This document shows positions 11,119-63,060 of a DNA stretch of 64,000 nucleotides, in pieces; the stretch's first letter is position 1; each line of letters starts with the position of its first letter. A program made the position numbers and the translations under genes. Source of the DNA: Candidatus Falkowbacteria bacterium (GTDB taxonomy: Bacteria > Patescibacteriota > Patescibacteriia > UBA11705 > JACRDX01); assembly GCA_043798985.1 (NCBI GenBank), contig JAZDOE010000002.1, positions 22,500 through 86,499 of the forward strand. The letters are read 5' to 3'. The notes below the pieces were generated by a model. The model made no database searches. It saw only the letters and a list, made by a program, of their open reading frames with translations, and was not told the DNA's origin.

Positions 11119-11266
11119 AAAATTCGAAATCCGAAATTCTAAACTCGAAACAAATTCCAAGTCCGACCACGCCTGCCGGCGGGCAGGAATCCGAATGTTT
11201 CAAACATTGAAAAATTCGTGCTTCGTGCTTGTTTAGGATTTCGTGCTTCGTATTTCGTATTTATAT
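11119..11266 (+). repeat. AT-rich palindromic intergenic repeat (modules AATCCGAAAT, AATGTTTCAAACATTG, TTCGTGCTTCGTGCTT) with embedded GC palindrome CCTGCCGGCGGGCAGG
   Basis: same modules recur at 28164-28208, 41516-41645, 51293-51425, 62815-63060, 9775-9837. Confidence 0.7.
11167..11187. repeat. GC-rich palindrome module GCCTGCC-GGCGG-GCAGG
   Basis: related copies at 17852-17875 and 62964-62984. Confidence 0.6.
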
Positions 11267-12754: not shown

Positions 12755-12873
12755 TTTAGTAAATTTTTACTTTGTTTGACAAAATTTACCTTTTGATATA
12801 TGTTGAAATGTTCGGTTTAAACCATTCCGCATCCGAACAACCGCCCCTTAACAACTAACAAGAGGTAAACAAA

Positions 12874-13815: not shown

Positions 13816-13821
13816 AATACT

Positions 13822-14622
13822 ATGATAATCAATACGATACAATGCAAAACCGTCTTAACAAAAAGCAAACTACCAGAAGTAGCATATTGTATCAATCCGT
13901 ATGTTGGCTGTTTGCACGCGTGTGCATATTGTTACGCCCGCTTTATGCGCCGATTTACCGGCCACTTGGAGCCGTGGGGTTGTTTTCTTGATGTCAAACT
14001 AAATGCACCGGAAATCTTAGCAAAAGAATTGGCCAAAGAGCCAAAAAGAGGCGCGGTGCTTTTGGGCAGCGTCACGGATGCCTATCAACCAATTGAACAG
14101 AAATATCGTCTTACTAGAGCGATCCTGGAAATCTTGCTTCAGCACGATTTTCCGGTTTCTATTTTGACCAAGTCCGATCTTGTCGTCCGCGATATAGACC
14201 TCTTTAAACAATTCAATGAATGCGAAGTGGGTCTGACTCTGACGACAACGGACGCTGAAATTGCCAAAGACCTTGAGCCCGGGGCTGCTATTCCTCAAAA
14301 AAGAATAGCGGCGCTCGAAACTTTGCACAAAAACGGCATTAGCACGTACGCTTTCATCGGGCCAATTCTGCCAGGCCTTACCGATCTTGACGCCGTCTTT
14401 GGGAGCATTCGGGATAAGGTTAACTTTGTAATGGCAGAAAGCTTGAATACGAAATGTGGAAACTGGCAAAACATCCAAGCTGTTCTATCAAAAAGATACC
14501 CCCACCTCTTGCCGCTCTATCAGGTCGGTCTTGATAAAGCGTACTGGGATAGCATTGAAAATCAGGTAAAAGCCTTAAGCAAAAGATTCAACATTCCGCT
14601 GAAAGGCTTCTACCGGCACTAA
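13822..14622 (+). CDS. SplB-like radical SAM protein (COG1533 DNA repair photolyase family)
   Basis: motif NPYVGCLHACAYCYA typical of the spore-photoproduct-lyase-like family. Confidence 0.7.
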   Translation: MIINTIQCKTVLTKSKLPEVAYCINPYVGCLHACAYCYARFMRRFTGHLEPWGCFLDVKLNAPEILAKELAKEPKRGAVLLGSVTDAYQPIEQKYRLTRAILEILLQHDFPVSILTKSDLVVRDIDLFKQFNECEVGLTLTTTDAEIAKDLEPGAAIPQKRIAALETLHKNGISTYAFIGPILPGLTDLDAVFGSIRDKVNFVMAESLNTKCGNWQNIQAVLSKRYPHLLPLYQVGLDKAYWDSIENQVKALSKRFNIPLKGFYRH

Positions 14623-14642
14623 GAGTCGCGAAGTATACTTGC

Positions 14643-14677
14643 GCCGCTAACATCCAACGGGATAGCGGCTTTTTTCT
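14643..14677 (+). terminator. Rho-independent terminator (GCCGCTA...TAGCGGC plus T7)
   Basis: seen directly after the SplB-like gene. Confidence 0.55.
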
Positions 14678-14729
14678 TTACAATGTTGCCAATATTTTGT
14701 ATCCTTAAAACAAAACTAACTATATTATT

Positions 14730-15194
14730 ATGAACATGAAACAATTATGCAAATTTTTAATTAAAGCCAAGATAAACACATATGCGTCGCAGGGGGAAAA
14801 TGGAAAAATGATTTTGTCTGACGGAAGCAACGAGTTTAAATTTCAAGAAAAAACGTTTAGCTACCGAGACAGACATTTTGGATTCAATCCTTTTATTGGC
14901 GAAGAAATTGTTTGGCAAAGCAAAAAAGCAGCTTGGGGCATGAATTATTATGGGAAAATTATTGCAAAAATTATTCCCGCAAAAAATATTTACTCATTCC
15001 TTCAAGAAGCATTAAAGAAGCCGAATGCGGACAAGCCATTCCGCGGACCTGCTAATTTCAGAAATGGCGACCTTAGATATATTAACAAAATGCAAGGAAC
15101 AGTTAAAAACTTCACCGGGGCAGAAACAATTTTTTATAAAAAACAACAAATATACCAACTAATTTATCATGGCGGCTTGATAATAATAAAATAA
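14730..15194 (+). CDS. hypothetical protein (154 aa, AT-rich)
   Basis: clean ORF within the lysS-repeat-bounded islet; no recognisable family. Confidence 0.5.
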   Translation: MNMKQLCKFLIKAKINTYASQGENGKMILSDGSNEFKFQEKTFSYRDRHFGFNPFIGEEIVWQSKKAAWGMNYYGKIIAKIIPAKNIYSFLQEALKKPNADKPFRGPANFRNGDLRYINKMQGTVKNFTGAETIFYKKQQIYQLIYHGGLIIIK

Positions 15195-15283
15195 AAAAAC
15201 GACGAGAAACATTGTTCTCGCCAACATCCAAAAATCAACGCCCTCCCGCTAATCCTCCGACTTTCCGCGCAACCTGCGCTGCT

Positions 15284-15622
15284 TCACCGCTCGCGCGCAA
15301 GAATGATGAAAATCCGGAAATCGTTGTTCGGTTGCAATTGGTTGTGAATGGTTGGGAAATTATAAACGCGTACAGCGAATTGATCGATCCGATTGATCAA
15401 GCGCAAAGATTTGATCAACAAATGACTGCCCGCAAAGCCGGCGACGAAGAAGCGATGTTAAAAGATGACGAATATGTTGAGGCAATGGAATATGGAATGC
15501 CGCCGATTTCCGGCTGGGGCATGGGAATGGAGCGGCTACTCACGCTTTTGACAAAACAGCCGAATTTGAAAGATGTTGTGCTGTTCCCGCTGATGAAACC
15601 AACAGAACCGACAGATGAATAA
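15284..15622 (+). pseudogene. lysS 3' fragment (last about 110 codons, no 5' part), direct repeat copy 2
   Basis: protein-level match SPLARKNDENPEIV...LFPLMKP to LysS C-terminus; followed by terminator. Confidence 0.75.
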
Positions 15623-17829: not shown

Positions 17830-17935
17830 ATTCCGACCCCTTGTAAAGGGGGAGCCTGCCTGCCGGCAGGCAGGGAATCCCTTGCAGAGATTTTGCGAAG
17901 GGATTTCTCACCCGCCAAGGCAGGTTCGAAATGAC
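17830..17935. repeat. palindromic repeat (arms TGTCATTCCGA / TCGAAATGACA) with inserted GC palindrome CCTGCCTGCCGGCAGGCAGG; compact copy at 32268-32330
   Basis: shared strings GCGAAGGGATTTCTCACCC and GGTTCGAAATGACA. Confidence 0.6.
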
Positions 17936-27000: not shown

Positions 27001-28163
27001 CCAGCTGCGCTGGCATTCGGACAAAACATGAATTCTTCAAGCAAATTGATTTCTTTATAAGAATACGCGACATTAACGGTCTTGAGCGCCAGAATCGCTT
27101 TTTCCGTGCCTTTTTCTATATCATAAACTTTTTCTTTTGGATTATACGACTCGCTTGCGCTGGCAAATCCGCGCATAATCGCTTTGCGGATCGCTTCCAT
27201 AATTCCTCTGGACATCAAAGTGTTCACAAAAGTTGAAAGCATTTGTTCAGGAATATCTTCTATCACACTTGTCGCAACATCATACGAACTTTCCGTAACT
27301 GATTCTGATCGCACAATATCTCTCTCTGCCATGCCACTTGTGACGCTTGCCGGAGCTACAACCTTGGTTCCGATCTGATTCTTTTGCACTTTCCATCCAC
27401 GCGCCTCCTGCCGTTCTTTTTCTTTCGCATCCTGCTCTTCCGCGGCTTGCGCCAAAATCTGGTCATTAAAAGTCAAATAAAGACCAAACGGATTTTTCGT
27501 TGGCGCGAATGCCAAAGCAACCGTATCAAGCGCTGTAAGCGAAGCCGCTTCTGGACTCTTAAATTTCTCCTTCCATTCATCAGCAAAATTTTCCCAATTA
27601 TCAAGTACATTGGTTGGAGTACAATATGGCTGCGGTCGCGGCATCAAATCGTGCATTTGTCCCAAATTGGTTGTAAGCCAAATTTTAAAATCAAGTTTTG
27701 GCGCGCAAATGTCAAAGCCAGTCGCGGCATAAATTCCTTCCGCGATATATTCAATCACATTGCCGGCGGCGTATTCATATTCGCTTTTCAACATTTCTTT
27801 CCATCCTTGCGTTTCAAACAATGGTCCCTTGCCCCAATCACCGGTCGCGATCATATCAACCGCTGACTCTGCCGCGCTCTTTGCTAAATACAACGCGACA
27901 TTGCGCAACGTCACAGACGCGGTCAAAACCATTGTTTTCCAAAGTTCATCTTCAACTCTTGTCTCAACTTTATCTTTTATTTTTTCAGCCTGATCGCCAG
28001 TATGATAAATCTGCCGCTGCGTAAAAGCGAATTGATCAAAAACAACTCCCCCAACCTGCGCCTTTGCCGGCATAACGGAAACAAAAATAGAAAGCAAAAA
28101 TATTGCCAAAACTCCAGTGATTATAACTTTGTATCTTGAACCCAATATCATATATTGAAACAT
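18012..28163 (-). CDS. giant secreted cysteine-rich protein (3383 aa)
   Basis: single uninterrupted ORF, N-terminal signal peptide, Cys-rich throughout; plus-strand ORFs inside are spurious. Confidence 0.8.
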   Translation of the reverse strand: MFQYMILGSRYKVIITGVLAIFLLSIFVSVMPAKAQVGGVVFDQFAFTQRQIYHTGDQAEKIKDKVETRVEDELWKTMVLTASVTLRNVALYLAKSAAESAVDMIATGDWGKGPLFETQGWKEMLKSEYEYAAGNVIEYIAEGIYAATGFDICAPKLDFKIWLTTNLGQMHDLMPRPQPYCTPTNVLDNWENFADEWKEKFKSPEAASLTALDTVALAFAPTKNPFGLYLTFNDQILAQAAEEQDAKEKERQEARGWKVQKNQIGTKVVAPASVTSGMAERDIVRSESVTESSYDVATSVIEDIPEQMLSTFVNTLMSRGIMEAIRKAIMRGFASASESYNPKEKVYDIEKGTEKAILALKTVNVAYSYKEINLLEEFMFCPNASAAGNNIRSINNCVLDENFYDAVAESSSGKALTVQQAIDQKDLNPDWPLTADVEKNTNSECYMQGYCYGNLVKLRKARILPVGWEMAAKIAEQKGTPVTLGEAIKGFYDQNSSWYHLVDPNWLLMAPLQRCRVQGYNDMLYAKGGDSRQEVCVDTQDCVRVDENGKCVGGWGYCRAEENVWKLDGEKCLGQYDSCLSLVRRDNKAFDYLKNTLIEDSLTCNEQNVGCKWYSAWKNANNWSQDEQYKLLANAKLTEKTCAPSAEGCSNFIEEKPGIGLNILPNADFEDTSAGSVTPGWNSVQNKATLTIIKDTVFSGSQAIKVQVLSINPNGAGLQVGNNPVDTIKIAPQPIPRFFAFSGYVLIPGELTGTWKLDARCSKDNGTVFDGMVKDSDNVWNNATPKNQWIRKYIVIETKPYVNSLRLAFSTSDGTGTINVDAAMIEEIDPFLYGYTASKFKPYGEGGAAFLKRAPDYYQCYNMIDDAGKDIAGVVGTPYLRKNIKIDDDANACGKFAKMCSADEVGCEQFTNKQTNVSVVGVPSYYDYCPSTCAGYDVFEQMASNFEANIFPFYMIPQTAQTCSAEQAGCDEFTNLEVVEKGGEGKEYYSELRLCYRPVPDNNPEVPDEKSDPKCSPFYTWTGSDVSGYQLLTYALRDEDKNGQPDITTNDDSTFCNQTIYNQNLANKKVSDCREFYSDTGKKSYHLYTKTITCSVDCHPYRRTIGNKTDCESFGGSWEDEACVYMAIPKEGRVCSKTNAGCREYQGSQAGNVESVLNATFEQEAIKVPVEINVQDALCNPAKTYYVDADSVIVNPISWDAAKGICKFLEHNIPQEKTKAEMCSYAGYYWQNSTKKCLEFEPIGATYQAWKPGVVSSESLYSGGHSLLLDINVQSTENDLTGKIFAGTHYRLSFWAKHTLAKDAQAIVGVKVLGDAGKSFQNNTAVTLQNNNEWHYYNTKDFFVGADILADIKKLTLKLEKQFGADAKLWLDDIKLYTTVDTYYLLKQTAINTVPAICNQTLDNKILPQAMIGCAEYKDRVGGTHFLKSFTKLCPIVAVGCEAFIDKHNSDNPFSEKFLQGTPQQQEITQANLQALCDKNNPLIFNAFKKDLPSATNLYWCTAGVLGNCQTFPCAGGSGIGKTSKELCLLAGDVWDMKTNKCWEGNYLTIKADQLIYLVNDKSVQCSKDNEGCTALGTPSLNSEGKLKPLTDKAKCTKINGIWSEADGICYTNGGNQTPETSWNEVYFKVDPDEFVETLCQYSGLGCESFATTDNKTLYLFDPGEQVCEWKKVEQTADDGSVSTVTGWFAKYDKDVKGKPISCEAKQYYQDGVNNLLRVTDADFTGWAGICQNKYDKCTAFVDPSDKSQNPVGRPYYYLNDEVLDKKSCGNGVSQLKGCVLFNDTSNPQLGFASAQTYLNSAAKNYAVIAPVGKADIDTALTQCPVPACPEFKQCMLEDLADLQGQTIANSGYCLTTFVNPFEIKECLCTSKIQKEPKCTPTPPDATGAYNTLCAPLQYRNAYDSNTILKVIRERQCKEWYTCVGGHWEWISQRNQYEKKCDVLGLCTKLADGTETCSEIEVYISEDDYKNVSAFSPPQYTKRNTGFDGIEYAGYTVPGQYPLHTLKAAERAENYGYGLVFVGPSCGAGKVCPADNDNIASNDFICAEKDKVCVKNVDGTKLNTPVPKAYGSCRAYPEENSPFPGSVLKLTGGSSGEGNKEDYGGALICVNPADCGCGYQKVTYGNKARELYFAMGNESKPEWICENDHDGRAMTCTKNCMKGLENLKMCDPQGPYFYVDKLTEKPPTAGIAETCGQCLKKDKDTVSVYKGWDGYCLEKDSTNIVYGKKDQHPCLSWYPVDVPSGTLDLNNYSADAGYVPPADSGNYYCIEPALFQYPMATKQECSPVVKDVEAACGQQTYFKMIGALQESVTYAAHLQDDWTDECKDIALFKPKFEDCLWQLMGEEKHGEGEKDIPDNFTDFAGNDCEPDEATAERTRCVDAYVKAPNEEKCPNGYFPVFGPPGEPTLDSSDPKQSDSLEYKCEQQNEKSSKKGQDKEAKFECGMFCVPYGSKLNITQQRVQDLENPEHADEMWEQFETYKIAEHNGKTCFPGMYYNSPVSVTSLWDLSSVQIDNDSTADADKFFSTLYIPYRYCEGPGYPVQSTGFEYTGYPFSEVMKKLEDVNQFDYGLGCYEVAQVTEGGKGNDPLTQVVAWTDRIQSEKKLTDIVAPVVIGGDQFGFYKATQVSDFGSMNLKLDALVDAKQKATIESDVMDLIELTYCVAGNTLTLPTSYTATGTAECAGQLYGVAVSDEEGDAIEGAEGRGKSYAEFEAIAPKPSSCTEDSHCYLNDVKPICDRTDIKSQACPTNDAGALIEADVKAYWLWRDGCADLAGDITSVCPTIQQAKAISDYQQSERGQSVSYLGFINNEFKYWKHTKTENYGMPGEKPIFEEAEPFGGQCDNIVLCRIGGAHQGDKVQVQGAKLIFCETPEQWIKIGYPEGKSLDHPEYIEFEPALGCKKNKTPNDTGNQCNMGFHFILCADADTAKVDLGYKMQGSILDIDGKEIDSKPYYPSQTISSWFDDSLGGSVLTPYCTQTGVLEEEYSLGECKDFNLMCNADSNCQQFECDKTANQCVVKGGETANTIKIKDAPDFSFVGKGLLNKDSVTLRLGNLFRNIFQAYKYTVKIDNTPRAKQFVQTVDSAGIQGNLTITDALLGLDISYEPVGFANLTDDLVGTDTFAPMVAGHIKAEDGTDRAILNTLAIKTDVGLYLSGTVPEKGANKVLAAQLEFYAWADRDHMPLRRVMVDFGNGADVIGAGNSNQRYKNHKPWCGDEAGAGTLECKDYEGLMCKDAGDCELAGAAAACEVVESSFGNSSGACMEGYFSYFGLYQCKKKQIDTLPTCVDGATTTTASSDYVVAHPDYAKGCYDPAYIHDFGEEGACVYFPRVQVLDNWDWCNGSCEGAGKGCYGSVKNDSAANCKDSIAKAWTYFNGKIIVKP

Positions 28164-28208
28164 TGTGATTTCGTGCTTCGTGCTTGTTTCGGATTTAGTG
28201 CTTCGTGC
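28164..28208. repeat. AT-rich repeat module (AATGTT.. / TTCGTGCTTCGTGCTT) between TSP3 protein gene and giant gene
   Basis: same motifs as 11119-11266. Confidence 0.6.
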
Positions 28209-28985
28209 TTATTTTCCTGCTGTTTGTTTCAACGCATCCTGATAAAGTTGCTGTAATGTCGCGTCATCAATTCCATTCAGCATTTCATCGCTCACTCCTT
28301 GCTGTTTTAACAATGCTTTTAATTCTGCTGTTGAATATTGCTTGCCCGCCGACGAGGCGGGCGTCGTTCCAGTTACCTGCCCCGCCAGCGGCGCAGTTTC
28401 GCCAGATCCAATGTTCAGCGCGTCCTGATAAACTTTCAACAATTCAGAATCGCTGATTTTTTGCAAATCAGCTTCTGTGAACGCGCCTGTCGCGACCAAT
28501 GCTTGGCGGATCTGGTCAGGCGTCGCGTTTGCCAAGTCAGTCAAGTCTGTCGCGCTAGAACCGGCCGTATTGGTTGTTGCCAACACTTCTGACGTAAAAC
28601 AATTTTGACCTTTTGGACAATTTGGATCATTGCCAGAATCTATTTCAGTTTTATCGTCAAAACTATCGCTGTCGCTATCTGCCAAATATGGGCTTGTGCC
28701 GTAAATACTCAATTCGTCATAATCGCTGATTTTGTCCTGATCAGTATCCATTGTTTTCAAATCCGCGTCAGAAGTTATCGCAGTATTGCTCGTGGTTTGC
28801 TGTGCTGTTTTTCCGGAGTTTGGCAACTCTAAACCAATAATGCTGCGAAATTCCCAGACGCTCAAACCAATCACCGCAATACCAATCACGCAGACAAAAA
28901 TCAACGAAAAAATTTGATGCCGCTCTAATCGCCGCGTCTGTGGTTGAAACGATTCCTGCCCCTCGGGAAGCGCCATGTCTTCCAT
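28209..28985 (-). CDS. membrane-anchored protein with thrombospondin type-3-like Ca-binding repeats (DxDxD)
   Basis: one TM helix, DSDSDSFDDKTEIDSGNDPNCP motif; immediately upstream of giant gene, same strand. Confidence 0.6.
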   Translation of the reverse strand: MEDMALPEGQESFQPQTRRLERHQIFSLIFVCVIGIAVIGLSVWEFRSIIGLELPNSGKTAQQTTSNTAITSDADLKTMDTDQDKISDYDELSIYGTSPYLADSDSDSFDDKTEIDSGNDPNCPKGQNCFTSEVLATTNTAGSSATDLTDLANATPDQIRQALVATGAFTEADLQKISDSELLKVYQDALNIGSGETAPLAGQVTGTTPASSAGKQYSTAELKALLKQQGVSDEMLNGIDDATLQQLYQDALKQTAGK

Positions 28986-36753: not shown

Positions 36754-37914
36754 TTATTTCACGGTATTTTTCAACCTCGCCTCAATGAAATTCTCAATAT
36801 CGCCATCCAATACGGAGTCAACATCTGAAGTTTCAATTTCTGTGCGATGATCTTTGACCATTTTGTACGGTTGCAAAACATACGAACGAATCTGATTACC
36901 CCAACTGGCCTCGGTATACTCGCCACGCAAAGCTTTTTTCTCCTCCTCTTTTTTTGCCTCATTATATTGCCGCACTTTTGATTGCAAAACCCGCATGGCA
37001 ATTTTTTTGTTTTGCGCCTGCGAACGCTCGTTTTGGCAAGTGACAACAATCCCAGTCGCCAAATGAGTAATGCGAACAGCCGAATCGGTTGTGTTCACGC
37101 TTTGCCCGCCATGCCCGCCAGAACGAAAAACATCAACCTTGATTTCATCGTCTTTAATCGCCAACTCCGCGGTTTCCGGAAAAATCGGCAAAACCTGCGC
37201 CAATGCAAACGATGTGTGCCGCATTTTTTCCGCGTCAAAAGGAGAAATACGCACCAACCGATGCACACCAGCCTCGCATTTCAAATAACCATAAGCAAAA
37301 TCACCATCAACTTCAACTTCAACGCTTTTGATTCCAGCTTCAGCGCCGCTGGATATCCACAAAATTTTTGTCTTCCAGCGGCGCTTTTCACAAAATCGCA
37401 AATACATTCGCAAAAGCATTTCCGCCCAATCCTGCGCGTCAGTGCCTCCGGCGCCGGAGTTAATTGAAAAAATCGCGCCATAAGAATCATATGGCGCAGA
37501 AAGCAACAATGATGTTTCCATCTTTTTAAAATCCGCTTCAATCTTTTGCGCCTCAATCACCCAATCTTCCGGCAGCTCGTCCTTATCACCAGCCCGCTTC
37601 GCAGGAGCTCCCGCTTCGACCGCGAAGCGAGGCGAGTCAGCCTGCCTCGCCGAGTCAAGGCGGGCGAGGCGAGCCAGTTCCAAAAACGCGGCCGTGCGTT
37701 CGCGCAATTCCAGCCACGCGCTAATTTCTTTTTCCAGCCGCGCCAGCTCTTGGTTCAGCGCGGCTGCTTTTTGCGCGTCTTTCCAAAAATCCGGCCGCGT
37801 CATTTTTTCATGTAATTCAACAATCCGCTTTTGCTTTTCATCCAATTTCAAAATCCCAATCGCTTGTTTGATTTTTTCAGCTATCTGCTCAATTGTTTTA
37901 TATAATTCAGTCAT
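36754..37914 (-). CDS. prfB: peptide chain release factor 2, single continuous frame (no programmed frameshift), with 26-aa in-frame GC-rich repeat insertion
   Basis: SPF and GGQ motifs; ORF continuous from ATG. Confidence 0.9.
   Translation of the reverse strand: MTELYKTIEQIAEKIKQAIGILKLDEKQKRIVELHEKMTRPDFWKDAQKAAALNQELARLEKEISAWLELRERTAAFLELARLARLDSARQADSPRFAVEAGAPAKRAGDKDELPEDWVIEAQKIEADFKKMETSLLLSAPYDSYGAIFSINSGAGGTDAQDWAEMLLRMYLRFCEKRRWKTKILWISSGAEAGIKSVEVEVDGDFAYGYLKCEAGVHRLVRISPFDAEKMRHTSFALAQVLPIFPETAELAIKDDEIKVDVFRSGGHGGQSVNTTDSAVRITHLATGIVVTCQNERSQAQNKKIAMRVLQSKVRQYNEAKKEEEKKALRGEYTEASWGNQIRSYVLQPYKMVKDHRTEIETSDVDSVLDGDIENFIEARLKNTVK
37591..37680. repeat. GC-rich (about 70%) repeat module inserted in-frame in prfB (encodes ARLARLDSARQADSPRFAVEAGAPAKRAGD)
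   Basis: 38-nt exact match GTCAGCCTGCCTCGCCGAGTCAAGGCGGGCGAGGCGAG to reverse complement at 41929-42007; related modules at 62861-63010. Confidence 0.8.
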
Positions 37915-40822: not shown

Positions 40823-41515
40823 TTATCTGATCCCACATGTTTTAAACCACCCCTTAATCTGCGCCTTAATATCATTTAACTCTTTTAACGTTAATCGCGG
40901 CGTGTTCAACAACGAAGGGTCAATAATTCTATCAGTCGGTTTAAACCGCTGAATAAAAAATTTATTCGCGCCTTTCACCTGTTTGGCCATTTCAACAATA
41001 TCATTTGAACTGTGCAGTTCTGATAAAACGGTCGCGCGAAATTCATGTTCAACGCCACTATTTAATATTATTATAGCACTTTTTTTAACCGCAGACATAT
41101 CAACCGTTGCGCCAATGATCTTTGAATATTTTTGCCACGGCGCCTTTATATCCATTGCAAAATAATCAACCGCTTTTTCAGCCAGCAACTGTTCAAGTAC
41201 ACCCGGATTTGTTCCGTTTGTGTCCAACTTGACCAACAAACCGCGCTCTTTTATTTTTTTTATAAATTTCAACAAATCTTTTTGCAAAGTTGGCTCGCCG
41301 CCGGTAATGCAAACCGCATCAATCAAATGCTGACGCGCTTTGATCAAATCCCAAATGTCGCTTTCACTGATTGTTTTAACGTATTGCGCTGGAATAACTA
41401 ACTCTGGATTATAACAAAAACGGCAACGAAATCCGCATCCCTTGGTAAAAATAGTCATTGCCACTTTTCCAGGATAATCCAGCAATGTAAGCGGTTGTAC
41501 GCCACCAATCAACAT
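40823..41515 (-). CDS. nrdG: anaerobic ribonucleoside-triphosphate reductase activating protein (radical SAM)
   Basis: CGFRCRFCYN motif, size, position downstream of nrdD. Confidence 0.85.
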   Translation of the reverse strand: MLIGGVQPLTLLDYPGKVAMTIFTKGCGFRCRFCYNPELVIPAQYVKTISESDIWDLIKARQHLIDAVCITGGEPTLQKDLLKFIKKIKERGLLVKLDTNGTNPGVLEQLLAEKAVDYFAMDIKAPWQKYSKIIGATVDMSAVKKSAIIILNSGVEHEFRATVLSELHSSNDIVEMAKQVKGANKFFIQRFKPTDRIIDPSLLNTPRLTLKELNDIKAQIKGWFKTCGIR

Positions 41516-41645
41516 AAAATAAAAAACACGAAATCCGAAGCACTAAATCCTAAACAAATTCGAAATCTGAATGTTTCAAAATTGGAAAATTCAAGTTTCG
41601 TGCTTGTTTCGTATTTCGATATTCTAATTTCGTGCTTTCTTTTTG
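41516..41645. repeat. AT-rich palindromic repeat (CACGAAATCCGAAGCAC ... GTGCTTGTTTCGTATTTCG arms, AATGTTTCAAAATTGG core)
   Basis: family member, see 11119-11266. Confidence 0.65.
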
Positions 41646-41846
41646 TTATTGTAAAAGCGCATCACTTTTATGCATTACCTGATCATATGTCCTGCGATCT
41701 CCAAACTCCGAGCGCTTTCCCTCATTCCACCGGTTCACTGGACTCAAATATCCCACAACTCGAGAATAAATCTCGCATTTTTGTCTTGGTTTTTGTATTG
41801 GTGTCATAACTGCTACGGCTAACATATTTGTTTTTATATTATACAA
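41646..41846 (-). CDS. small ORF carrying the NrdD-type glycyl-radical motif (SRVVGYLSPVNRWNEGKRSEFGDRR), separated from the nrdD frame
   Basis: matches C-terminus of E. coli NrdD (RRVCGYLGSPDARPFNAGKQEEVKRR); track start is TTG, first ATG at 41825; different frame from nrdD with stops between. Confidence 0.5.
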   Translation of the reverse strand: MYNIKTNMLAVAVMTPIQKPRQKCEIYSRVVGYLSPVNRWNEGKRSEFGDRRTYDQVMHKSDALLQ

Positions 41847-41875
41847 CTAAACTAACAATCAACCAAGTGTCTAAA

Positions 41876-44800
41876 TTAACCATTTTTCGGAGCTTGCGCT
41901 GTGTTATCCACAGCATTGGAATTTGGGACTTGCCCGCCTGCTCGCCTCGCCCGCCTTGACTCGGCGAGGCAGGCTGACGCTTCGTCGAAGCGGGCCGACG
42001 AGGCAGGGTCATTAAGTTTCAACGCTTCCCGCCCTTGATCAACATACCCAGACTGCTCGTCGCACAAAGGGCAATATTCTTGCTCACCGGATAAATAGCC
42101 GTGAATCGGACAAATGCTGAATGTCGGCGTAATTGTAAAATATGGCAACCGAAAATTGTTGGCAATTTTCTTAACAAGTTCTTTCGTGGCTTCTGGCGAA
42201 GGCATTTTTTCGCCGAGAAAGCCGTGGAACACGGTGCCGCCAGTGTAGCGAATCTGCAAATCATCCTGCAATCGCAAGGCCGTGAAAATATCGTCAGTAT
42301 AGCCAACGGGCAAATGCGTGGAATTTGTATAATATGGAGCGGCATTGCGCGCGCGGCAGGCAACTTCATTGGCGACAATAATATCGGGAAATTTCTTTTT
42401 ATCAATTTTGGCAAAACGGTATGACGCGCCTTCTGCCGGAGTCGCTTCCAAATTGTACAAATGGTTGGTCGCGTTTTGGTAATCCATAATCCGTTCTCTC
42501 ATAAAATCCAAAACCTGCCGCGCGAATTTATGGCCTTCAACTGTCGTAATATCTTGCCCCAACAAATTCAACGCTGATTCATTAACACCATTCAAACCGA
42601 TTGTATTAAAATGATTTTGCCAATATCCGCCAAACCGTTCTTTTATTAAGCCAAGAAAATGCTTTGAATATGGATAAAGTCCGCCGTCCGTGAGATTTTC
42701 TAGAACGGTTCGCTTAACTTCCAAACTTTCTTTTGCCAAATCCATCAATTTTCCAAGCTTGTCAAAAAATTCTTCTTTGCTATTAGACAAATATCCCAAA
42801 CGCGACATGTGGATCGTCACCACGCCAATACTGCCAGTTAGCGGGTTAGCGCCAAATAAACCGCCCCCGCGCTTGCGCAATTCTCTATTGTCCAAACGCA
42901 AACGGCAACACATGCTCCGCGCGTCCTCTGGCTTCATATCGGAAAATATGAAATTCGCAAAATATGGAATGCCGTACTTTGATGTCATTTCCATGATTTT
43001 TTGAATAATCGGCGCGTCCCAATTCCAGTCTTTTGTCACATTATACGTTGGAATGGGCCAGCTCAAAACCCTGCCTTTTCTATCACCCTCTGTCATCACC
43101 TCAATAAATGCCTGATTAAACATGTCCATTTCTTTTTGGAACTCGCCGTAGGTTTCTTTTTGCGGCTGACCTCCGATTATTATTGACTCTTTCGCCAAAA
43201 TTCCGGCTGGAAACAAATCAAATGTCACGTTTGTAAATGGCGTGTTGCCTGTTATAAATATTTTGCCATTGCGCCGCGCAATAACGGTTTCATTATCCGT
43301 ATTTGGACACCAAATAATCCCCTCATAATCAACTTTTGTCACCTTATTAATATATGTATCTACATGCTTAATCAACCTAATAATATACCGATCTTTTTTA
43401 GACAATTTGTTGTCTGGCTTTCGCGTCAGCACAGTGGCGCCATATCCGGCATTTACCGCCACCTGCAAAAGTCCATCTGCGATCTTTTTTGATGTCGTCG
43501 TAATTTTGCATCCATCGTGACCATCTCCTTTTATATACGTCTCTAAAAACAATCTGGACGTTTCAACGTCAGCTTGCAAAATACTCTGTGGAATCAATTT
43601 AATACCCTGCTGCTTATCGGACTTAAAATAATTCAATATTTTTCTGGTGCTAAACGCGTCAAAACGCAAAACATTACAATCCTGACCCAATCCGCACTGC
43701 ATTCTTTCTGTATATTTCAATCCCAAATTATCGCAAATTGAAACTATCTCATCATAATTGTCAGCAGACACTGCACGCGATTGATAAATGCTTATGCGGC
43801 CAGTACCCCGTTCGCCCTTATCTATGGTTCCTTCTGCCACTATCCACGCAATCAACTTTACAATTTCTTCATTCAACGAACCATTGCCACGCGTATTTCC
43901 ATCGCTACCGACTGGCACGATAAATGGCGATTTCAATGCTATAACATCTTCTATTTTTTCCAAAACATATTCACTGCCATTGAACTTTTTCCGCACGACA
44001 CGATGTTCTGGCGAAATAAGCTGGTCGCTAATTCTGTTTTTCAAATTATACATTTTACCGGAATATTTTCGCGCAAAAACTTTATTAACCGGCAGATACT
44101 CAATATACCCCCCTTCAACATTAAACGTTGCAATTATATCGCCACTTTTTATTTGATTATATTGAGCCCAGCCATTTTTACCCAAAATTTCCGTGTCCTC
44201 TGACATGCATTGAAACCCTACTCGCGTAGGCACGTTCATATTAAACAAAAAAATCTGCATCTGTTGTTTAACCTGATCCTGCGTCAGACTGTCGTATCTG
44301 ATAAATGGCGCCAAATACGTGTCCAAACTGGAAACCGCTTGCGCGCCAGCTGAATTTCCACACCAGCAAGCCCGACCCTTTCTTCTTACATATAAAGTAT
44401 GATTTGGCACTTCCAAACAATAAACCGTTCCATAATAATGCACCTTTTTTATATTTTGTTCTTTGCTCCTGAATTTAAAATGTCTTGACCGAGAAACGCA
44501 AACTTTATACCATTTAAAATTCTTTTTGTGTTTTTCGTAAATATTAGCGCTAAATCCTAATTTTAATATTATCTCCTGAACATCGTCTGCCAATTTTTTG
44601 CTTTTTGTATAATATTCAATATTACCACCACCAATATACCCATCACCAGCCATCATCCAGTGCAATAAAATATCCAATTCTGCTTTTGCCAAGTTCTTAA
44701 TTTCTTTAGGAATAAACTTACTGTCCGCTTTTCCAAACTGTTTCAGATATAAAAATAATTGCTTATTGCCAATATAAAATTCCAGTTTTTTATTATTAAC

Positions 44801-46099
44801 TTTTTTATTATATTTAAATGGAAGTTTTCTCAAAATTTGTTCAAATTCATCGGCAATTTTTCCTTGATTTTGACTGATGCGCACTAAATACTCATAATAT
44901 GCTTTCTTGCGACCTTTTCTTTTTCTTTCCCGCAAAGAAACACAACCTTCTGCTATCCAAAAACCAAAAAATGCCAACCAATCTTTCATCATTATTTTTT
45001 TCGCTAAGCATTTTTTAATTACATATTTTTTACCATAATGCTGGTACTGCCTAATGTCTATTTCCGGCAAAATAAATTCTTTTTTTGATACGCCGTTCCA
45101 TGCTCCATTCTTAGGAATAAAATGCTCACTAGGATTAAACGCCGCTGCTTTGACAAACTTTCGACGATATGGTCCGCCCTTACAGTTCGGGCAATATTGG
45201 TCAACAACCATGTTATGATTTGGAGTGACTAAAATATCTATTTTTTTGGATTTAAAATTATATAATTCTCCGTTGTAAATATATTTGTAAAACTTAATCG
45301 GCTTTTTCAATTCAATTCTATTCGTTTGATTATTTAGTGTAAAAACTTTATTTTGCTTATCTACTTCATAAAAATATTTCCACCCTGAATCAGTTAAAAC
45401 TTCGGTATCCTCTGAATAACATTCTCCCTGCAAAGTATAAAAAAAATTCACCAGCTGTCCCAATGCCGTGGCAAAATGTTTCGGCGGCTTGCTTTCCACC
45501 TTGCCGGAAATTCCGCCAAAGCCGCGCGAAATTAAGTCGTGCAAATCCCAGCCGCAACAATAGGTAGATAAAATTTGTAAATCATGAATGTGAAAATCAC
45601 CATTCACGTGCGCGTCTTTTACTTTTGGCGGATAAATTTTATTCAGCCAATAGTTCGCGCTAATAGTTGAAGAAACGTAATTATTCAAACCTTGCAACGA
45701 AAAATCCATGTTGCTATTTTCTTTGACGCGCCAATCCAGCTTTTGCAAATATCCTTCAATCAGATCATTTGGATCAATCAAATTACTCATTTCACGAATT
45801 TTCGCGTGCTGATCGCGATAAATCACGTACGCTTTGACGGTTTTACGAAGTTTATTATCAATTAAAACATCCTCAACAATATCCTGAATTTCTTCAATCG
45901 CGGGAATTGTCCTTTCGTGAAATTTTTTGTTAAGCCGCTCAACAACTTCATCGGATGCTTTTTCAGCCTGCTCTTTTGCGCCTTCTTCCGCGGCTTGCAT
46001 TGCTTTAAAAATCGCAGTCGTGATTTTATTTTGGTCAAAATCAACAATCCTGCCATCGCGCTTGCAAATCTGAATAATCTTATTGCCAGAATAAGACAT
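41876..46099 (-). CDS. nrdD: anaerobic ribonucleoside-triphosphate reductase (class III) with ATP-cone and two inteins; C-terminus altered by repeat insertion
   Basis: ATP-cone N-terminus, HIHDL motif, PYFTITP...CPIH...CPLC Zn ribbon; extein about 729 aa. Confidence 0.9.
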   Translation of the reverse strand: MSYSGNKIIQICKRDGRIVDFDQNKITTAIFKAMQAAEEGAKEQAEKASDEVVERLNKKFHERTIPAIEEIQDIVEDVLIDNKLRKTVKAYVIYRDQHAKIREMSNLIDPNDLIEGYLQKLDWRVKENSNMDFSLQGLNNYVSSTISANYWLNKIYPPKVKDAHVNGDFHIHDLQILSTYCCGWDLHDLISRGFGGISGKVESKPPKHFATALGQLVNFFYTLQGECYSEDTEVLTDSGWKYFYEVDKQNKVFTLNNQTNRIELKKPIKFYKYIYNGELYNFKSKKIDILVTPNHNMVVDQYCPNCKGGPYRRKFVKAAAFNPSEHFIPKNGAWNGVSKKEFILPEIDIRQYQHYGKKYVIKKCLAKKIMMKDWLAFFGFWIAEGCVSLRERKRKGRKKAYYEYLVRISQNQGKIADEFEQILRKLPFKYNKKVNNKKLEFYIGNKQLFLYLKQFGKADSKFIPKEIKNLAKAELDILLHWMMAGDGYIGGGNIEYYTKSKKLADDVQEIILKLGFSANIYEKHKKNFKWYKVCVSRSRHFKFRSKEQNIKKVHYYGTVYCLEVPNHTLYVRRKGRACWCGNSAGAQAVSSLDTYLAPFIRYDSLTQDQVKQQMQIFLFNMNVPTRVGFQCMSEDTEILGKNGWAQYNQIKSGDIIATFNVEGGYIEYLPVNKVFARKYSGKMYNLKNRISDQLISPEHRVVRKKFNGSEYVLEKIEDVIALKSPFIVPVGSDGNTRGNGSLNEEIVKLIAWIVAEGTIDKGERGTGRISIYQSRAVSADNYDEIVSICDNLGLKYTERMQCGLGQDCNVLRFDAFSTRKILNYFKSDKQQGIKLIPQSILQADVETSRLFLETYIKGDGHDGCKITTTSKKIADGLLQVAVNAGYGATVLTRKPDNKLSKKDRYIIRLIKHVDTYINKVTKVDYEGIIWCPNTDNETVIARRNGKIFITGNTPFTNVTFDLFPAGILAKESIIIGGQPQKETYGEFQKEMDMFNQAFIEVMTEGDRKGRVLSWPIPTYNVTKDWNWDAPIIQKIMEMTSKYGIPYFANFIFSDMKPEDARSMCCRLRLDNRELRKRGGGLFGANPLTGSIGVVTIHMSRLGYLSNSKEEFFDKLGKLMDLAKESLEVKRTVLENLTDGGLYPYSKHFLGLIKERFGGYWQNHFNTIGLNGVNESALNLLGQDITTVEGHKFARQVLDFMRERIMDYQNATNHLYNLEATPAEGASYRFAKIDKKKFPDIIVANEVACRARNAAPYYTNSTHLPVGYTDDIFTALRLQDDLQIRYTGGTVFHGFLGEKMPSPEATKELVKKIANNFRLPYFTITPTFSICPIHGYLSGEQEYCPLCDEQSGYVDQGREALKLNDPASSARFDEASACLAESRRARRAGGQVPNSNAVDNTAQAPKNG
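41929..42007. repeat. GC-rich repeat module inside nrdD 3' end (opposite orientation to prfB copy)
   Basis: exact 38-nt match with prfB copy. Confidence 0.8.
43244..44209 (-). mobile_element. intein 2 in nrdD (322 aa) with LAGLIDADG homing endonuclease motifs
   Basis: starts CMSEDTEILGKNG after extein VGFQ, ends KIFITGN before Thr; LIAWIVAEGT and FLETYIKGDGH motifs; flanking extein aligns with NrdD (GQTPFVTFGF region). Confidence 0.75.
44354..45421 (-). mobile_element. intein 1 in nrdD (356 aa) with LAGLIDADG homing endonuclease motifs
   Basis: starts CYSEDTEVLTDSG after extein TLQGE, block F VYCLEVPNHTLYV, ends ACWCGN before Ser; FFGFWIAEGC and LLHWMMAGDGYIG motifs. Confidence 0.75.
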
Positions 46100-49154: not shown

Positions 49155-49613
49155 TTAATGAATTTTTAAATCTGAATTTTGAAACATTATGCGACGTTCA
49201 AGTTGCTCCATGGTCCGTGCGTCTGACAATGTCTTGTGATCATGCCCAAGCAAATGCAAATATCCATGGATCAACAATTTCGCTACTTCGCTTTTCATTG
49301 CCCGGTCGGATTGTTTAGCCTGCCCGCGGACGCGGGACGCGGCCAGGGCCTGTTGCTTCGCGCGAGCAAGACAAATTATAATTTCACCCAACGTGCTGTT
49401 GTTTTCCCCGGCAAAAGACAGCACATCAGTCACTTCGTTTTTGCCGCGATACGCCAGATTCATTTTTTTAATAACCGCTGGTGTCACAAAAGCCAGGGAT
49501 ATTTCCTGGTTTTTGCGAATTTTCAAAACTTTTTGACAAATCTGAATAATGCCCTCCAACAATTTTTTATCCACCTTTATCTGCGTTTGATTATTAACTT
49601 CTAGAACGAACAT
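49155..49613 (-). CDS. ybeY: rRNA maturation endoribonuclease YbeY
   Basis: HGYLHLLGHDH metal-binding motif. Confidence 0.85.
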   Translation of the reverse strand: MFVLEVNNQTQIKVDKKLLEGIIQICQKVLKIRKNQEISLAFVTPAVIKKMNLAYRGKNEVTDVLSFAGENNSTLGEIIICLARAKQQALAASRVRGQAKQSDRAMKSEVAKLLIHGYLHLLGHDHKTLSDARTMEQLERRIMFQNSDLKIH

Positions 49614-51292: not shown

Positions 51293-51425
51293 AATATTAA
51301 ATATTAAATTCGAAACACGAAATCCTAAATTCTAAACAAATTCCAAATACGAAATTCAAATGTTTCAAACATTGGAAAATTGTAATTTCGAGCTTGTTTC
51401 GGATTTCGATATTCGTGCTTCGTGC
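51293..51425. repeat. AT-rich palindromic repeat (CACGAAATCC ... GGATTTCG arms, AATGTTTCAAACATTGG core, TTCGTGCTTCGTGCTT tail)
   Basis: family member. Confidence 0.65.
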
Positions 51426-54400
51426 TTATTCACAAACGTTTGGTTTAAAATTAAATTGATAGCCAGTCAACAATGCGTCTATTTCCAGATAATAACTGAA
51501 TTTGCACGTTTGGCTCGCTGGAAAATATTGATATGAATAAATCGGCTGATACTTTTGAGTTTGCGCGCTGAACTTTTTGTTTAATGAATCATAGCATGTA
51601 TTCATGTCATAACCAATCGGACATAATCTGCAAAAACTTCCGGCCGGCGAACATTGTGAAGTTGTTTTTTCACAATAACCTTGATCCTTGCCGCACGATT
51701 CATATTTATTTGTATCAACAACTCCATTCACCTTTACAGCGTTTTCGCCAAGCTGCGCAACATCAGCAAAATGGTTCAATGGATCTTCTGGCACAGAATT
51801 CTGCAAATCCGCGCTAAATTCTTCTTGCCACGATGGCCACACACTATAAGTGACATTTTTCACGTATGAGCCAGCATCCAAATGCGGATAATCCTCATAA
51901 ATCTTAAAATACGAACCAGAATTTTTTGGATCATTTAACAAATATTTTACAAATGCCGCGTCATTCACACGTTTGGTATCGCGTTGAATCATTTGCTTTT
52001 TCAAAACTTCAACATTAGTATTAAATTTCCAATGACTTAATAATTGGTTAACAATTGACAGTGTGTTTGCGTTTGCTTTGTCAGTATAGCTAAAAATATA
52101 AACATTATTAAAAATCTTTTTGTCATCAGAAACATTGGCTCCGGAAACATAAACGGTCCTGCCATCTTTTATCGCGTGATAACCATCAATGTCTGCTGAT
52201 TGCGGCCCGCCCGGATTTGGCACGTATTGTTTGTACCAAAGTTCCAGCGGCCAAGAGCCCGGATTTTCAGCCACGCGCAATGAAATCGCGTCAGAAACAT
52301 AATCATAATCTGTCAGCGGCGCGCCATATGGACCTGTTTCGCGCACAAAAAACACTTCGTAAAAAATCTCTGGCGGCTGCGATGCATTCGCGCTGCCTAG
52401 CACATCTTTAATCAATGGCAAATCATCTATTAAACTTCCTCTATCCTTTCCGTCTCTGCAATAAAATGTCTTCAAATTAAATTTATCAACGTTCCATATC
52501 CATGGTTTGTCACAAAATATTACATCAATATCTGCCGCGGCTTCAAACATTTTGCCAGCTTCTGTCCCGCCAAACAATGTGTCTGCTGTGACATTCAAAA
52601 TCGCGAAAAGCAAATTATTTAATCCTTCTTTATCTTTTGCAAAAGCTATTTCAACATTTTCGCTGGGAGTTTTTGAAGATGCTTTAATTCCCACTATATC
52701 AACTGAATTGTCTGCCAATTTCCACGTCACTGTCCAATCATACTGGCCAACAACTTCGTGAATATAACCTTTTTCTGACTGCGCTATCGCAACAAATTCT
52801 TGCGCTTCTGCTGGTTTTGTGAAAAGTTTTGTGGCTGGCTCAATGGCCAAAGTGGAAATTTTGCACGCGCCACCAACGGTAAAACCAAAAATCAAACCGG
52901 TCTTCATTGGATTTCCGCAAGAATCAATAACTCCATTTTCTACATTCACTAAATATGTCTTGTTACTGCTTAACAACCCAATCGGCTCAACTAGCACCAT
53001 TTTTGTGTTTCCATTGCCAGCATCATCCAAACTTGTAATTACCATGTTGACCGGCGGCATTTGCACTCCAATTATGCCGATTGATATGTGCTTTTTCAAA
53101 CTCTCCAAATTTAAAGGCTGATTAAATTCCAATAAAATGCTTACATTTTGGCACACGTTCGTTTCATTCGCGGCAGGCAAGGTTTTTACAAACGCCACTG
53201 CGCCATAGCCTTTACAACCTGTTGGGTCATCACCGTTGTCACCGTTTGGCCCATCAATCGGACCATTTTCATAATTTAGTGTTGTATAAACTAATTCTGC
53301 CGCATTTATATCTTTTTCCTGCAAAATCTTGGCGATTGCTTTCATGTCCCATGGATACGCCAAAATATTTGTTTTATCAACAAAAACTTTTTCAGGTAAA
53401 TCGCCAATCACGGTTGCCAGCTGATAAAAATTTCCGGGCGCGCTGCCAACGATTGCTGGCTCGCATTTCTCGTCTTCGCCCGGCTCAACTTTTCCATTTC
53501 CACAAACCGCGCCCCACGAATAATCCGCGCCTTTTTTCAAACAATTTAGCGCGCACCAAGCAGAAGAAACTTCGCATTCTTCGCCAGCGTCAATTTTCGC
53601 GTTTCCACAGCAGTTCAGCTCGCCGGCTTTTGAACATTTTAATGTTCCTTGCCACAGACAGTTTTTCGCGCAACCAGCATCCGTTGATTCACATTCCTCG
53701 CCCTGCTCTAATTTTCCATTTCCGCAAATAGCCGGCTCGCTACCAAAAACATATTGCGCGCCCTCAAACAAACATTGGCTATTACAACCGTCTTTTGCCA
53801 CAACATTTCCATCATCGCAATCTTCGCCATATTCAACTTTTGCGTTGCCGCAAACAAATCCGGCAATTGCAGAGCCTTCATTTAAACACTTTGAACTGCA
53901 ACCATCAGCGCCTTTCGCGTTTTTATCGTCGCAATCTTCTGCTTTATCTTTTGCGCCATTGCCGCAGCAATTCGCATCGCCAACCTGCAAACAAGCAACC
54001 ATACCCTCGTTCAAACATTGCGCGCCGCATCCATCGCCTTCCAATTTATTGCTGTCATCGCACTCTTCGCCATATTCAATTTTTCCATTTCCGCAAACCG
54101 CGGCTTTGTCTTTTGGCACACTGCCGCTTAGCTGGCATTTTGCGTTGCAATATTTTGGCAAATTCAAATTGCGCTGATCATTTGAAATGGTCGCGACTGA
54201 CGGCTTTGTTGAATCCCAGCTCCATGAATAGAGGTTTGGCGCTAAAATTTCGCCAATGCCATCGCAACCCAATGGATCGCCAATTGGATTTGCTTGATAT
54301 AGAATTTTTTGATCTTTATCATAACTTATCATTTCTTGCGGAACAACATCAACTTTTTGCGGCTTGCAAATAGCAGAATCATTTTTTATTTTAAAAATCC

Positions 54401-62814: not shown

Positions 62815-63060
62815 AAAAAAGTAAATTCTAAATAAGAAATCCGAAATACTAAACCCTCCATAGGCGGGCAGGCAAGCGCGAAGCACCCCGGCCTCGCCTC
62901 GGCTCGGCCGAGGGCGGGCGAAATCACAATGTTTCAACATTGGGACATTCTGATTTCTAATTTGCCTGCCTGCCGGTAGGCAGGTTTCGGATTTCGACTC
63001 GCCTCGCTGAAGCTATGGCGAAGCGGGTATTCGGATTTCGAATTTTTATTATCATAACAA
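62815..63060. repeat. composite repeat: AT-rich palindromic element (AAATCCGAAAT, AATGTTTCAACATTGG, TTTCGGATTTCG) carrying GC-rich modules related to the prfB/nrdD inserts and the GCCTGCCTGCCGGTAGGCAGG palindrome
   Basis: module-by-module comparison. Confidence 0.7.

Follow-up and report, generated by a model that had tools for sequence, protein, structure and literature searches.

Described systems of palindromic repeats within genes

Rickettsia palindromic elements (RPEs; Ogata et al. 2000) are palindromic repeats of non-coding origin inserted in frame in unrelated housekeeping genes, as outlined in two accounts (PMC10969869; PMC3733652). In this work, we describe a 26-nt GC-rich hairpin unit that lies within larger in-frame modules in the prfB (release factor 2, RF2) and nrdD (class III ribonucleotide reductase) genes of a 64-kb stretch of DNA from an ultra-small groundwater bacterium (Candidatus Falkowbacteria) and that recurs in other Patescibacteria; the whole stretch that was analyzed is referred to as the window. 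Similar to RPEs, the modules keep the reading frame, add an extra peptide at tolerated positions, are present or absent among orthologs and have no known transposase. Their in-frame insertions in unrelated genes likewise face empty orthologous sites, namely in prfB, in the nrdD tail and in ybeY. RPE-1 is about 100–150 bp long and found only in Rickettsia, and short RPEs carry a CGTC tag (PMC3733652). Judged by these descriptions, the unit is set apart from RPEs by its length of 26 nt, its GC content of 77%, the lack of a tag, the low copy number and its occurrence in different class-level lineages of Patescibacteria.

The REP and REPIN repeats are 20–40-nt GC-rich imperfect palindromes with bulges that are often clustered in mosaics (PMC3733652; PMC3337134), and the 26-nt unit is a short imperfect palindromic stem-loop of the same kind. 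Normally located downstream of genes, REPs are occasionally found within them; Di Nocera et al. describe REPs inside replication and repair genes such as uvrA, as well as CGTC-type repeats without a dedicated transposase (PMC3733652). Here, the hosts include UvrA, RecG, RNase HII and NrdD. In contrast to REPs and REPINs, the unit has no GTAG/CGTC terminal tag, no REP-associated tyrosine transposase (RAYT) was found in the 24 window ORFs (open reading frames) scanned with Pfam, and the copy number is apparently tens of times lower. In addition, the unit is conserved across distant lineages, whereas REPs are species-specific.

The GC clusters of yeast mitochondria (e.g., GC42; PMC4478555) are also short GC-rich hairpins in a lower-GC genome, and they form mosaics by merging and shuffling. 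Conservation of their stems exceeds the neutral rate, their target-site footprints are imperfect and the mechanism of their mobility is unresolved (PMC4478555). They differ from the unit in being organellar, eukaryotic, mostly intergenic and high-copy per genome, and in having an AG target dinucleotide.

The DNA uptake and uptake signal sequences (DUS/USS) of Neisseria and Pasteurellaceae have cores of 9–12 nt that arise by point mutation and occur about once per kb. They are orientation-independent, lie within genes in permissive frames with an enrichment in genome-maintenance genes, and often form inverted-repeat terminators. The unit resembles them in its indifference to orientation, in its nucleotide-level conservation and in its position inside genes in permissive frames, but it is a 26-nt insertion that occurs about once per 30 kb or less; its density of two units per 64 kb is far from one per kb. 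The combination of terminal inverted repeats and a target-site duplication of fixed length that defines miniature inverted-repeat transposable elements is absent from the unit, and it matches no structured RNA family in Rfam, where the whole window gives no match at the gathering score and the module, at a relaxed E-value, only chance-level ones (E >=0.14).

In the Patescibacteria, also known as the Candidate Phyla Radiation (CPR), genomes are tiny and densely packed with genes, and the cells are believed to rely on scavenging and exchanging DNA. Within the literature covered, there is no prior description of this sequence or of intragenic palindromes in CPR/Patescibacteria. The behavior of the unit matches that of RPEs and intragenic REPs and recalls that of the yeast GC clusters, but we do not claim its membership in the RPE, REP/REPIN or GC-cluster families. 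The phenomenon thus resembles a known one, and what seems new is the lineage and the unusually strict sequence conservation. It extends RPE-like and intragenic REP-like colonization to the Patescibacteria, where the essential genes of RF2, uL18, sigma-70, UvrA, RecG and NrdD are repeatedly colonized in frame by a shared hairpin.

In-frame insertions in prfB, nrdD and ybeY

The RF2 protein of the window is identical to protein P0001, which NCBI names as the RF2 of a Candidatus Falkowbacteria metagenome-assembled genome (MAG) and which lies on a 94.8-kb contig. The closest relative is assembly GCA_016212745.1 (93–95% protein identity), represented by loci L001 (prfB region) and L048 (nrdD/ybeY region), and its RF2, P0002, is the closest RF2 homolog (93% identity in the alignment). 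A second relative, locus L002 from a JGI metagenome, encodes an RF2 (P0003) with 79% identity. The prfB gene and its module comprise the following features:

36754–37914 (−): prfB, encoding RF2 of 386 aa in a single ORF with the Pfam PCRF and RF-1 domains (RF2 chains in PDB, E=2e-96), the host of module 1
37588–37668 (+): module 1, an in-frame insertion in prfB of 81 nt (27 aa) and 72% GC, read as LARLDSARQADSPRFAVEAGAPAKRAG, without a counterpart in L001 and L002
37610–37636 (+): accessory hairpin piece of module 1, CCCGCTTCG-ACCGCGA-AGCGAGGCGAG, which recurs at 62998–63027 (−)
37641–37666 (+): copy 1 of the 26-nt hairpin unit CCTGCCTCGCCGAGTCAAGGCGGGCG, with sharp conservation boundaries and a fold described below

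The two closest RF2 proteins, P0002 and P0003, have exactly 27 residues fewer than the RF2 of the window, corresponding to 81 nt in DNA, and the approximately 120 RF2 homologs from Patescibacteria are mostly 355–370 aa long. The module, whose core is sense on the plus strand and hence antisense to prfB, falls within a GC-rich island of 115 nt (37585–37699). A preliminary description made from the letters alone had placed here an in-frame module of about 80 nt and about 70% GC; the size and composition hold, but the number of added residues, given as 26, is 27, and the peptide quoted for it has 30 aa. The accessory piece is partly common to module 2 of nrdD and to locus L004. In the AlphaFold2 model of the window RF2, the insert lengthens the helix 47–93, which is followed by a loop of low confidence (residues 96–112, predicted local distance difference test 39–48). 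The insert is thus predicted to be disordered and located at the tip of the helical hairpin of domain 1 (N-terminal), in agreement with the linker between N-terminal helices that had been proposed for it.

The same domain-1 loop of RF2 carries independent inserts in two other Patescibacteria (L040:3210–3420 and L041:3210–3420). The first one is a tandem duplication of a 38-nt unit with GACTCAAGGCAGGG, which resembles the loop and 3' arm of the hairpin unit, and the second one is a GC-rich palindrome, GGGGCGGGCCCGCCTTCGCG. An antisense ORF of 89 aa (37546–37815, plus strand; ..RRVSLPRRVKAGEASQF..) crosses the prfB module. It owes its existence solely to the lack of stops in the GC-rich insert and is likely to give rise to spurious gene calls. 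More generally, annotation is affected by the modules through inflated protein lengths and spurious antisense ORFs of this kind.

The second module is located in the nrdD gene, and a third in-frame insertion with a different hairpin was identified in ybeY:

41876–46099 (−): large nrdD ORF, 1407 aa, with the ATP-cone, the NRDD catalytic core and two inteins, ending at position 531/562 of the Pfam NRDD profile
41920–42013 (−): module 2, an in-frame insertion of 93 nt (31 aa) and 68% GC in the C-terminal tail of the large nrdD ORF, read as NDPASSARFDEASACLAESRRARRAGGQVPN
41948–41973 (−): copy 2 of the 26-nt hairpin unit, sense to nrdD
49323–49352 (−): GC-rich palindromic in-frame insertion in ybeY, 30 nt, 87% GC, CAGGCCCTGGCCGCGTCCCGCGTCCGCGGG, missing from ybeY of L048

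In both L048 and L002, the nrdD tail (...GRE(A/P)L(K/Q)V..AVDN...) continues in the same frame without the 93 nt. The ybeY insert (QALAASRVRG) closely precedes the HGxLHLxGxDH motif and shows no sequence relationship to the 26-nt unit. Compared with the closest relative, insertions of at least 10 aa in the conserved genes of the window occur in prfB, the nrdD tail and ybeY, plus the two inteins only. These alignments show that the modules in prfB (81 nt), the nrdD tail (93 nt) and ybeY (30 nt, different hairpin) were inserted recently, after the split from the nearest sequenced relative. The segment is missing from prfB and nrdD of the nearest relatives rather than carried by all orthologs, which supports the lineage-specific insertion envisaged earlier and not an ancestral domain.

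Modules 1 and 2 have in common an exact core of 39 nt, GTCAGCCTGCCTCGCCGAGTCAAGGCGGGCGAGGCGAGC, located at 37636–37674 on the plus strand and at 41940–41978 on the minus strand, with no match in 100 shuffled sequences. The exact core in opposite orientation that the preliminary description had pointed out is therefore real, while its length had been given as 38 nt. Pieces related to the modules were further found in one intergenic composite:

62892–62920 (+): intergenic sequence related to the unit but diverged, in which the stem halves are retained and the loop differs, CCTCGCC-TCGGCTCGGCCGAG-GGCGGGCG (three matches in the window, none in shuffles)
62998–63027 (−): intergenic copy of the accessory piece CCCGCTTCG...AGCGAGGCGAG (zero expectation in shuffles)
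62965–62984 (strand not assigned): palindrome CCTGCCTGCCGGTAGGCAGG in the same composite, with a relative at 17854–17871

The stem halves and the accessory piece, each with zero expectation in shuffles, substantiate the suggested kinship of the modules with 62861–63010.

Fold, boundaries and distribution of the 26-nt unit

The unit CCTGCCTCGCCGAGTCAAGGCGGGCG forms a stem of 7 bp with one bulged T and a 7-nt loop, GAGTCAA. Its fold energies are −6.9 kcal/mol as DNA and −13.1 kcal/mol as RNA (z-scores of −2.3 and −2.6), a modest stability that is nonetheless better than that of shuffled sequences, and the entire prfB module folds better than shuffles on either strand (z about −2.8 to −2.9).

Searched with a 20-mer of the core, the metagenome collection yielded 30 loci in about 23 distinct contexts. 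The six bases to the left of the query (CCTGCC) were present in 23–26 of the 26 distinct sequences compared, and conservation falls off at once on both sides of (G)CCTGCCTCGCCGAGTCAAGGCGGGCG. The unit is often nested in the center of other palindromes, for example CCTGCC^GGCAGG, CGCTTCG^CGAAGCG and ATTCCCGCC..GGCGGGAAT; elsewhere it adjoins the words GGGGATGACAA or CTCGCAATGACA, and the modules are mosaic in their make-up. Where carriers are named, they are Falkowbacteria, Levybacteria or other Patescibacteria. Several samples share identical contexts, and orthologous yqeY copies were found in independent JGI, ENA, Logan and NCBI assemblies. A scan of the species-representative genome collection, which leaves out the source MAG, with a 21-mer gave a single match in Patescibacteria (L004, sharing 35 nt and CCCGCTTCG with the window copies), as well as five partial matches, apparently due to chance, in high-GC genomes where the remainder of the unit is missing. 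No match was found among viral contigs to the 20-mer or to two gapped stem patterns, and a BLAST comparison of both modules with plasmids and phages returned none either. Altogether, we observe a dispersed hairpin family that spans Patescibacteria classes; in the genome of the window, its unit lies within mosaic modules composed of a few GC-rich hairpin 'words'.

Three other origins were rejected by eye: a tRNA D-arm or anticodon arm, since there is no G18G19 and no U33; a CRISPR or TIGR repeat, since the copies are single and inside genes; and a terminator, since the T-run is missing after both window copies.

Coding contexts and reading frame

Placement relative to coding sequences was determined by stop-to-stop ORF analysis combined with Pfam scans. 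Most of the well-defined contexts are intragenic, and the remaining copies are intergenic or at uncertain N-termini. The unit was found inside the Pfam profiles of uL18, YqeY and RNase HII, where the profile resumes on both sides, and between two Pfam domains in UvrA and RecG. In RpoD it is located in the N-terminal part ahead of region 1.1, and in a TsaC-TsaE fusion past the last domain, at the C-terminal end. Additional hosts are a protein with a DsbD-like membrane domain and several unannotated large proteins.

Stops occur in one of the six frames of the unit, and the five open frames read PASPSQGG, LPRRVKAG, CLAESRRA, ARLDSARQ and PALTRRGR. All five are used in real genes, in both orientations, whereas the stop-bearing frame is never used. 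No fewer than nine independent contexts preserve the frame (RF2, the NrdD tail, YbeY, KsgA of L002, uL18, YqeY, UvrA, RecG and RNase HII), for which the chance expectation is (1/3)^9, or about 5e-5, suggesting that the inserts are translated, or at least selected to be readable, and not spliced out. If so, the expected junction peptides include ELARLARLDSAR and QADSPRFAVEAGAPAK. Any stop-free frame is tolerated, and the surviving insertions are those in loops, linkers and termini. Together with prfB, the nrdD tail and ybeY, these contexts confirm the in-frame colonization of coding sequences that had been suspected.

In YqeY, a clade of orthologs contains the unit at one codon position, EIQK^GGAGY; its few named members are Levybacteria or unclassified Patescibacteria (the loci considered are L017, L019, L042–L045 and L049). 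This position is a hot spot. The same site is empty in 103 of 120 homologs, and in other homologs it is occupied by variants, including LPRRVKAG, LPRRTQVKAG with a 6-nt insert in the loop, another hairpin read as AVPAGRQG (CCTGCCGGCAG-type) and a longer unrelated insert. The site is filled in L017, while its nearest relatives (80–88% aa identity) are empty and relatives with 70–75% identity are filled. At the filled/empty junction, 2–4 nt of the 3' end of the unit coincide with a native GGCG, and there is no target duplication.

Origin and maintenance of the unit

The unit is probably a REP/RPE-like palindromic repeat, small, dispersed and non-autonomous, that is carried by Patescibacteria and survives in coding DNA only in frame. 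Under this scenario, copies would be made in trans, as the module itself encodes no protein, either by a single-strand hairpin-recognizing (HUH/RAYT-like) enzyme or through copying or recombination guided by microhomology, with GC-rich or hairpin sites as targets. Insertions that add a multiple of three bases at permissive places, such as surface loops, linkers and protein termini, would be read through as Arg/Ala-rich disordered loops and survive, whereas others would be purged by selection. DNA exchange among co-occurring Patescibacteria could then spread the repeat between genomes. Hairpin repeats of this type would supply proteins that are otherwise conserved with disordered loops specific to a lineage, and the unit could serve as a sequence marker for the movement of DNA between co-occurring ultra-small bacteria.

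Several observations weigh against a simple mobile repeat. The copy number is low, with two units in 64 kb and 30 loci in the whole metagenome collection, and neither Hamming nor nhmmer scans of about 396 kb of fetched loci revealed a second or a diverged or decayed copy. No Y1/HUH, RAYT or other transposase domain was detected by Pfam in the 24 window ORFs. A consistent GTAG/CGTC tag was not found, such words being near an end in 5 of 26 contexts at varied positions, nor do the flanks of the 26 contexts share any target-site duplication. The comparison of empty L049 with filled L017 in yqeY gives a net gain of 24 nt, which does not correspond to the cut-and-paste of a fixed 26-nt segment. Finally, in four yqeY orthologs whose flanks are 63–76% identical, 28 of the 29 nt of the unit region are invariant, including nine of nine third-codon positions, as compared with 14 of 79 in the flanks (P about 2e-7). 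The invariance of synonymous sites together with the low copy number makes simple selfish decay insufficient; unlike a decaying selfish repeat, the unit points to a further maintenance mechanism. The preliminary description of a selfish GC-rich repeat is right as to a dispersed palindromic repeat, but 'selfish' is not the whole story. Something must be added to account for the conservation at the nucleotide level: selection on the hairpin, repeated site-specific re-insertion, or a drive through recombination or uptake.

The main alternative is a functional nucleic-acid signal that is kept by selection or transmission drive, its cost being the insertions in coding sequences. Such a signal could be a DNA or RNA hairpin bound by a protein, or a DNA-uptake or recombination signal that reaches orthologous sites in related Patescibacteria via transformation and homologous recombination. 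The synonymous sites that are invariant among diverged yqeY orthologs, the sharp boundaries and the identity of the 26-mer in Falkowbacteria, Levybacteria and other Patescibacteria are consistent with it, as are the filled yqeY of L017 among empty close relatives, with distant orthologs holding the same unit at the same site, and the use of both orientations in conserved housekeeping hosts whose flanks could support interspecies recombination. However, the density of about one per 30 kb here, and less elsewhere, is far below that of known uptake sequences, and the yqeY site is also taken by variants and different hairpins. Moreover, the closest relative lacks the unit in prfB and nrdD and the hairpin insert in ybeY, and there is neither a match to an Rfam family nor a known binding protein or uptake bias. 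On balance, we regard such a signal as unlikely. Slightly less likely still is a particular form of it, in which the hairpin is a signal common to Patescibacteria that selection or a transmission drive keeps intact, for example by 'homing' into the same orthologous site via preferential uptake or recombination; this would explain the identical sequence in Falkowbacteria and Levybacteria, the synonymous invariance and the patchy filled/empty yqeY codon.

Local de novo formation of the palindromes, by replication template switching (quasipalindrome correction), slippage or break repair with filler synthesis, is a distinctly improbable source of the modules. Such events may have acted at the hairpin 28344–28362, which replaces an equal-length non-palindromic sequence of L001 and L002 without net insertion, and both the junction overlaps in yqeY, suggestive of microhomology, and the tandem 38-nt duplication in the RF2 loop of L040 agree with them. 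Nevertheless, the 26-mer and the 39-nt core recur at non-homologous loci, the 26-mer even in different genomes, and no local templates within a few hundred bases are seen for the modules of prfB and nrdD, which refutes such an origin for these two. Inserts with 68–87% GC in a genome of 42% GC cannot have been templated by local sequence.

An ancestral linker lost in the relatives, or an artefact of MAG assembly, is more improbable again. MAG contigs can be chimeric and domain 1 of RF2 varies in length, with no direct evidence in either case; on the other hand, the RF2 homologs are mostly of standard length and the two nearest ones lack precisely this segment, its composition is foreign to prfB, and the unit occupies orthologous yqeY positions in independent JGI, ENA, Logan and NCBI assemblies. 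The least plausible scenario is an intervening sequence, i.e., a mini-intron or processed hairpin removed after transcription or a ribosome bypass, because, for all the stability of the hairpin (−13 to −23 kcal/mol as RNA) and the fact that nrdD genes are known hosts of introns and inteins (the latter being present here), the frame is kept in every well-supported coding context (at least nine), which removal before translation would make unnecessary, the stop-bearing frame is never used, the host gene may run in either direction relative to the unit, and no ribozyme or Rfam match was found. A dispersed repeat tolerated in frame thus remains the most plausible interpretation.

Split nrdD gene

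The large nrdD ORF ends before the glycyl-radical segment, which is encoded separately and outside the repeat:

41646–41846 (−): small ORF with the NrdD glycyl-radical segment (..CEIYSRVVGYLSPVNRWNEGKRSEF..), covering positions 531–562 of the Pfam NRDD profile

The small ORF is in a different frame from the large one and is kept separate in L002, L048, L047 and L046. The segment (..C-E-I-Y-S-R-V-V-G-Y..) forms an ORF of its own, about 53–66 aa long, in the window (41646–42030, minus strand), in L002 (6215–6600), in L048 (5790–6165), and in L046 and L047. In L002 and L048, which lack the GC-rich module, the large ORF stops after ...GYVDQGRE... and is followed by a spacer and the small glycyl-radical ORF. 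Since the same split is present in these module-free relatives, the module is not its cause, contrary to the idea that the insertion had created the C-terminal disruption of nrdD. Module 2, by comparison of these sequences, is a later in-frame insertion in the non-conserved tail of the large ORF, the split being older and widespread.

A conserved TATAAT box lies in the spacer of L002 and L048 (about 70–130 nt), preceded at a distance of 17 nt by TTGGTT or TTGGCC. The consensus promoter scan did not call TTGGTT-17-TATAAT before the small ORF, the −35 element matching at 3 of 6 positions, and a promoter here is suggested from conservation only. A search with the small ORF identified 53 protein clusters of 42–77 aa, all with the NRDD C-terminal domain. 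These stand-alone clusters are mostly metagenomic, and the few named ones belong to Patescibacteria and Halanaerobium. For example, the cultured Halanaerobium saccharolyticum has a small NRDD ORF downstream of nrdG, and a metagenome contig with nrdR-nrdD-nrdG-...-prfB synteny has one between nrdD and nrdG. NrdD is intact in the more distant relative L040. The two-ORF arrangement may represent a class III reductase that is split, or else the small ORF may supply a 'spare-part' radical peptide, as GrcA/YfiD does for pyruvate formate-lyase. A two-piece NrdD with a separate glycyl-radical peptide was not found described in our literature search.

The large ORF also contains two inteins, at 44353–45421 (−; 356 aa, with a LAGLIDADG domain, 31% GC) and at 43243–44209 (−; 322 aa, 39% GC). 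Both are missing from L048, where NrdD has 698 aa, and the first one is missing from L002.

Other palindromic and repeated elements

The window has a GC content of 42%, which is moderate and not low, as the preliminary description had put it. Perfect GC-rich hairpins, counted from a stem length of 7 bp with at least 6 G:C pairs, occur 15 times in it, as compared with 0.33 expected from block shuffles, and about half of them are inside ORFs. Several are of the CCCGCC-loop-GGCGGG type and located in N-terminal low-complexity parts of membrane-anchored proteins (50301, 50467 and 51178). A second recurrent hairpin was identified within a coding sequence:

28344–28362 (strand not assigned): GCCCGCC-GACGA-GGCGGGC (19-mer CCCGCCTCGTCGGCGGGCA), inside the coding sequence 28209–28985 (258 aa)

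As noted above, this hairpin takes the place of an equal-length sequence in L001/L002. The same 19-mer CCCGCCTCGTCGGCGGGCA is present in a separate GC-rich insertion of ksgA in L002 (about 19–22 aa; L002:12880–12910), which is missing from the window and from L001 and which shares AATGACCC(T)GCCTCGTCGGC with the left end of the nrdD module.

Hairpin composites of a different, AT-rich type were observed in five intergenic regions (11107–11264, 28143–28232, 41511–41639, 51293–51449 and 62830–63060), where the heptamer words ATTTCGT, GCTTCGT and ATTTCGG are placed symmetrically around a TGTTTCAAACATTG-like center. In the composite at 62.8–63.0 kb, GC-rich pieces are embedded in both arms.

Finally, radical-SAM/SPASM and DUF5680 genes come after the lysS gene (11243–12754), and behind them the 3' end of lysS recurs as a copy of 136 aa (15212–15622). 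The block 11243–15622, bracketed by a 300-nt repeat with 95% identity (12412–12711 and 15283–15582), looks like an element integrated in the 3' end of lysS.

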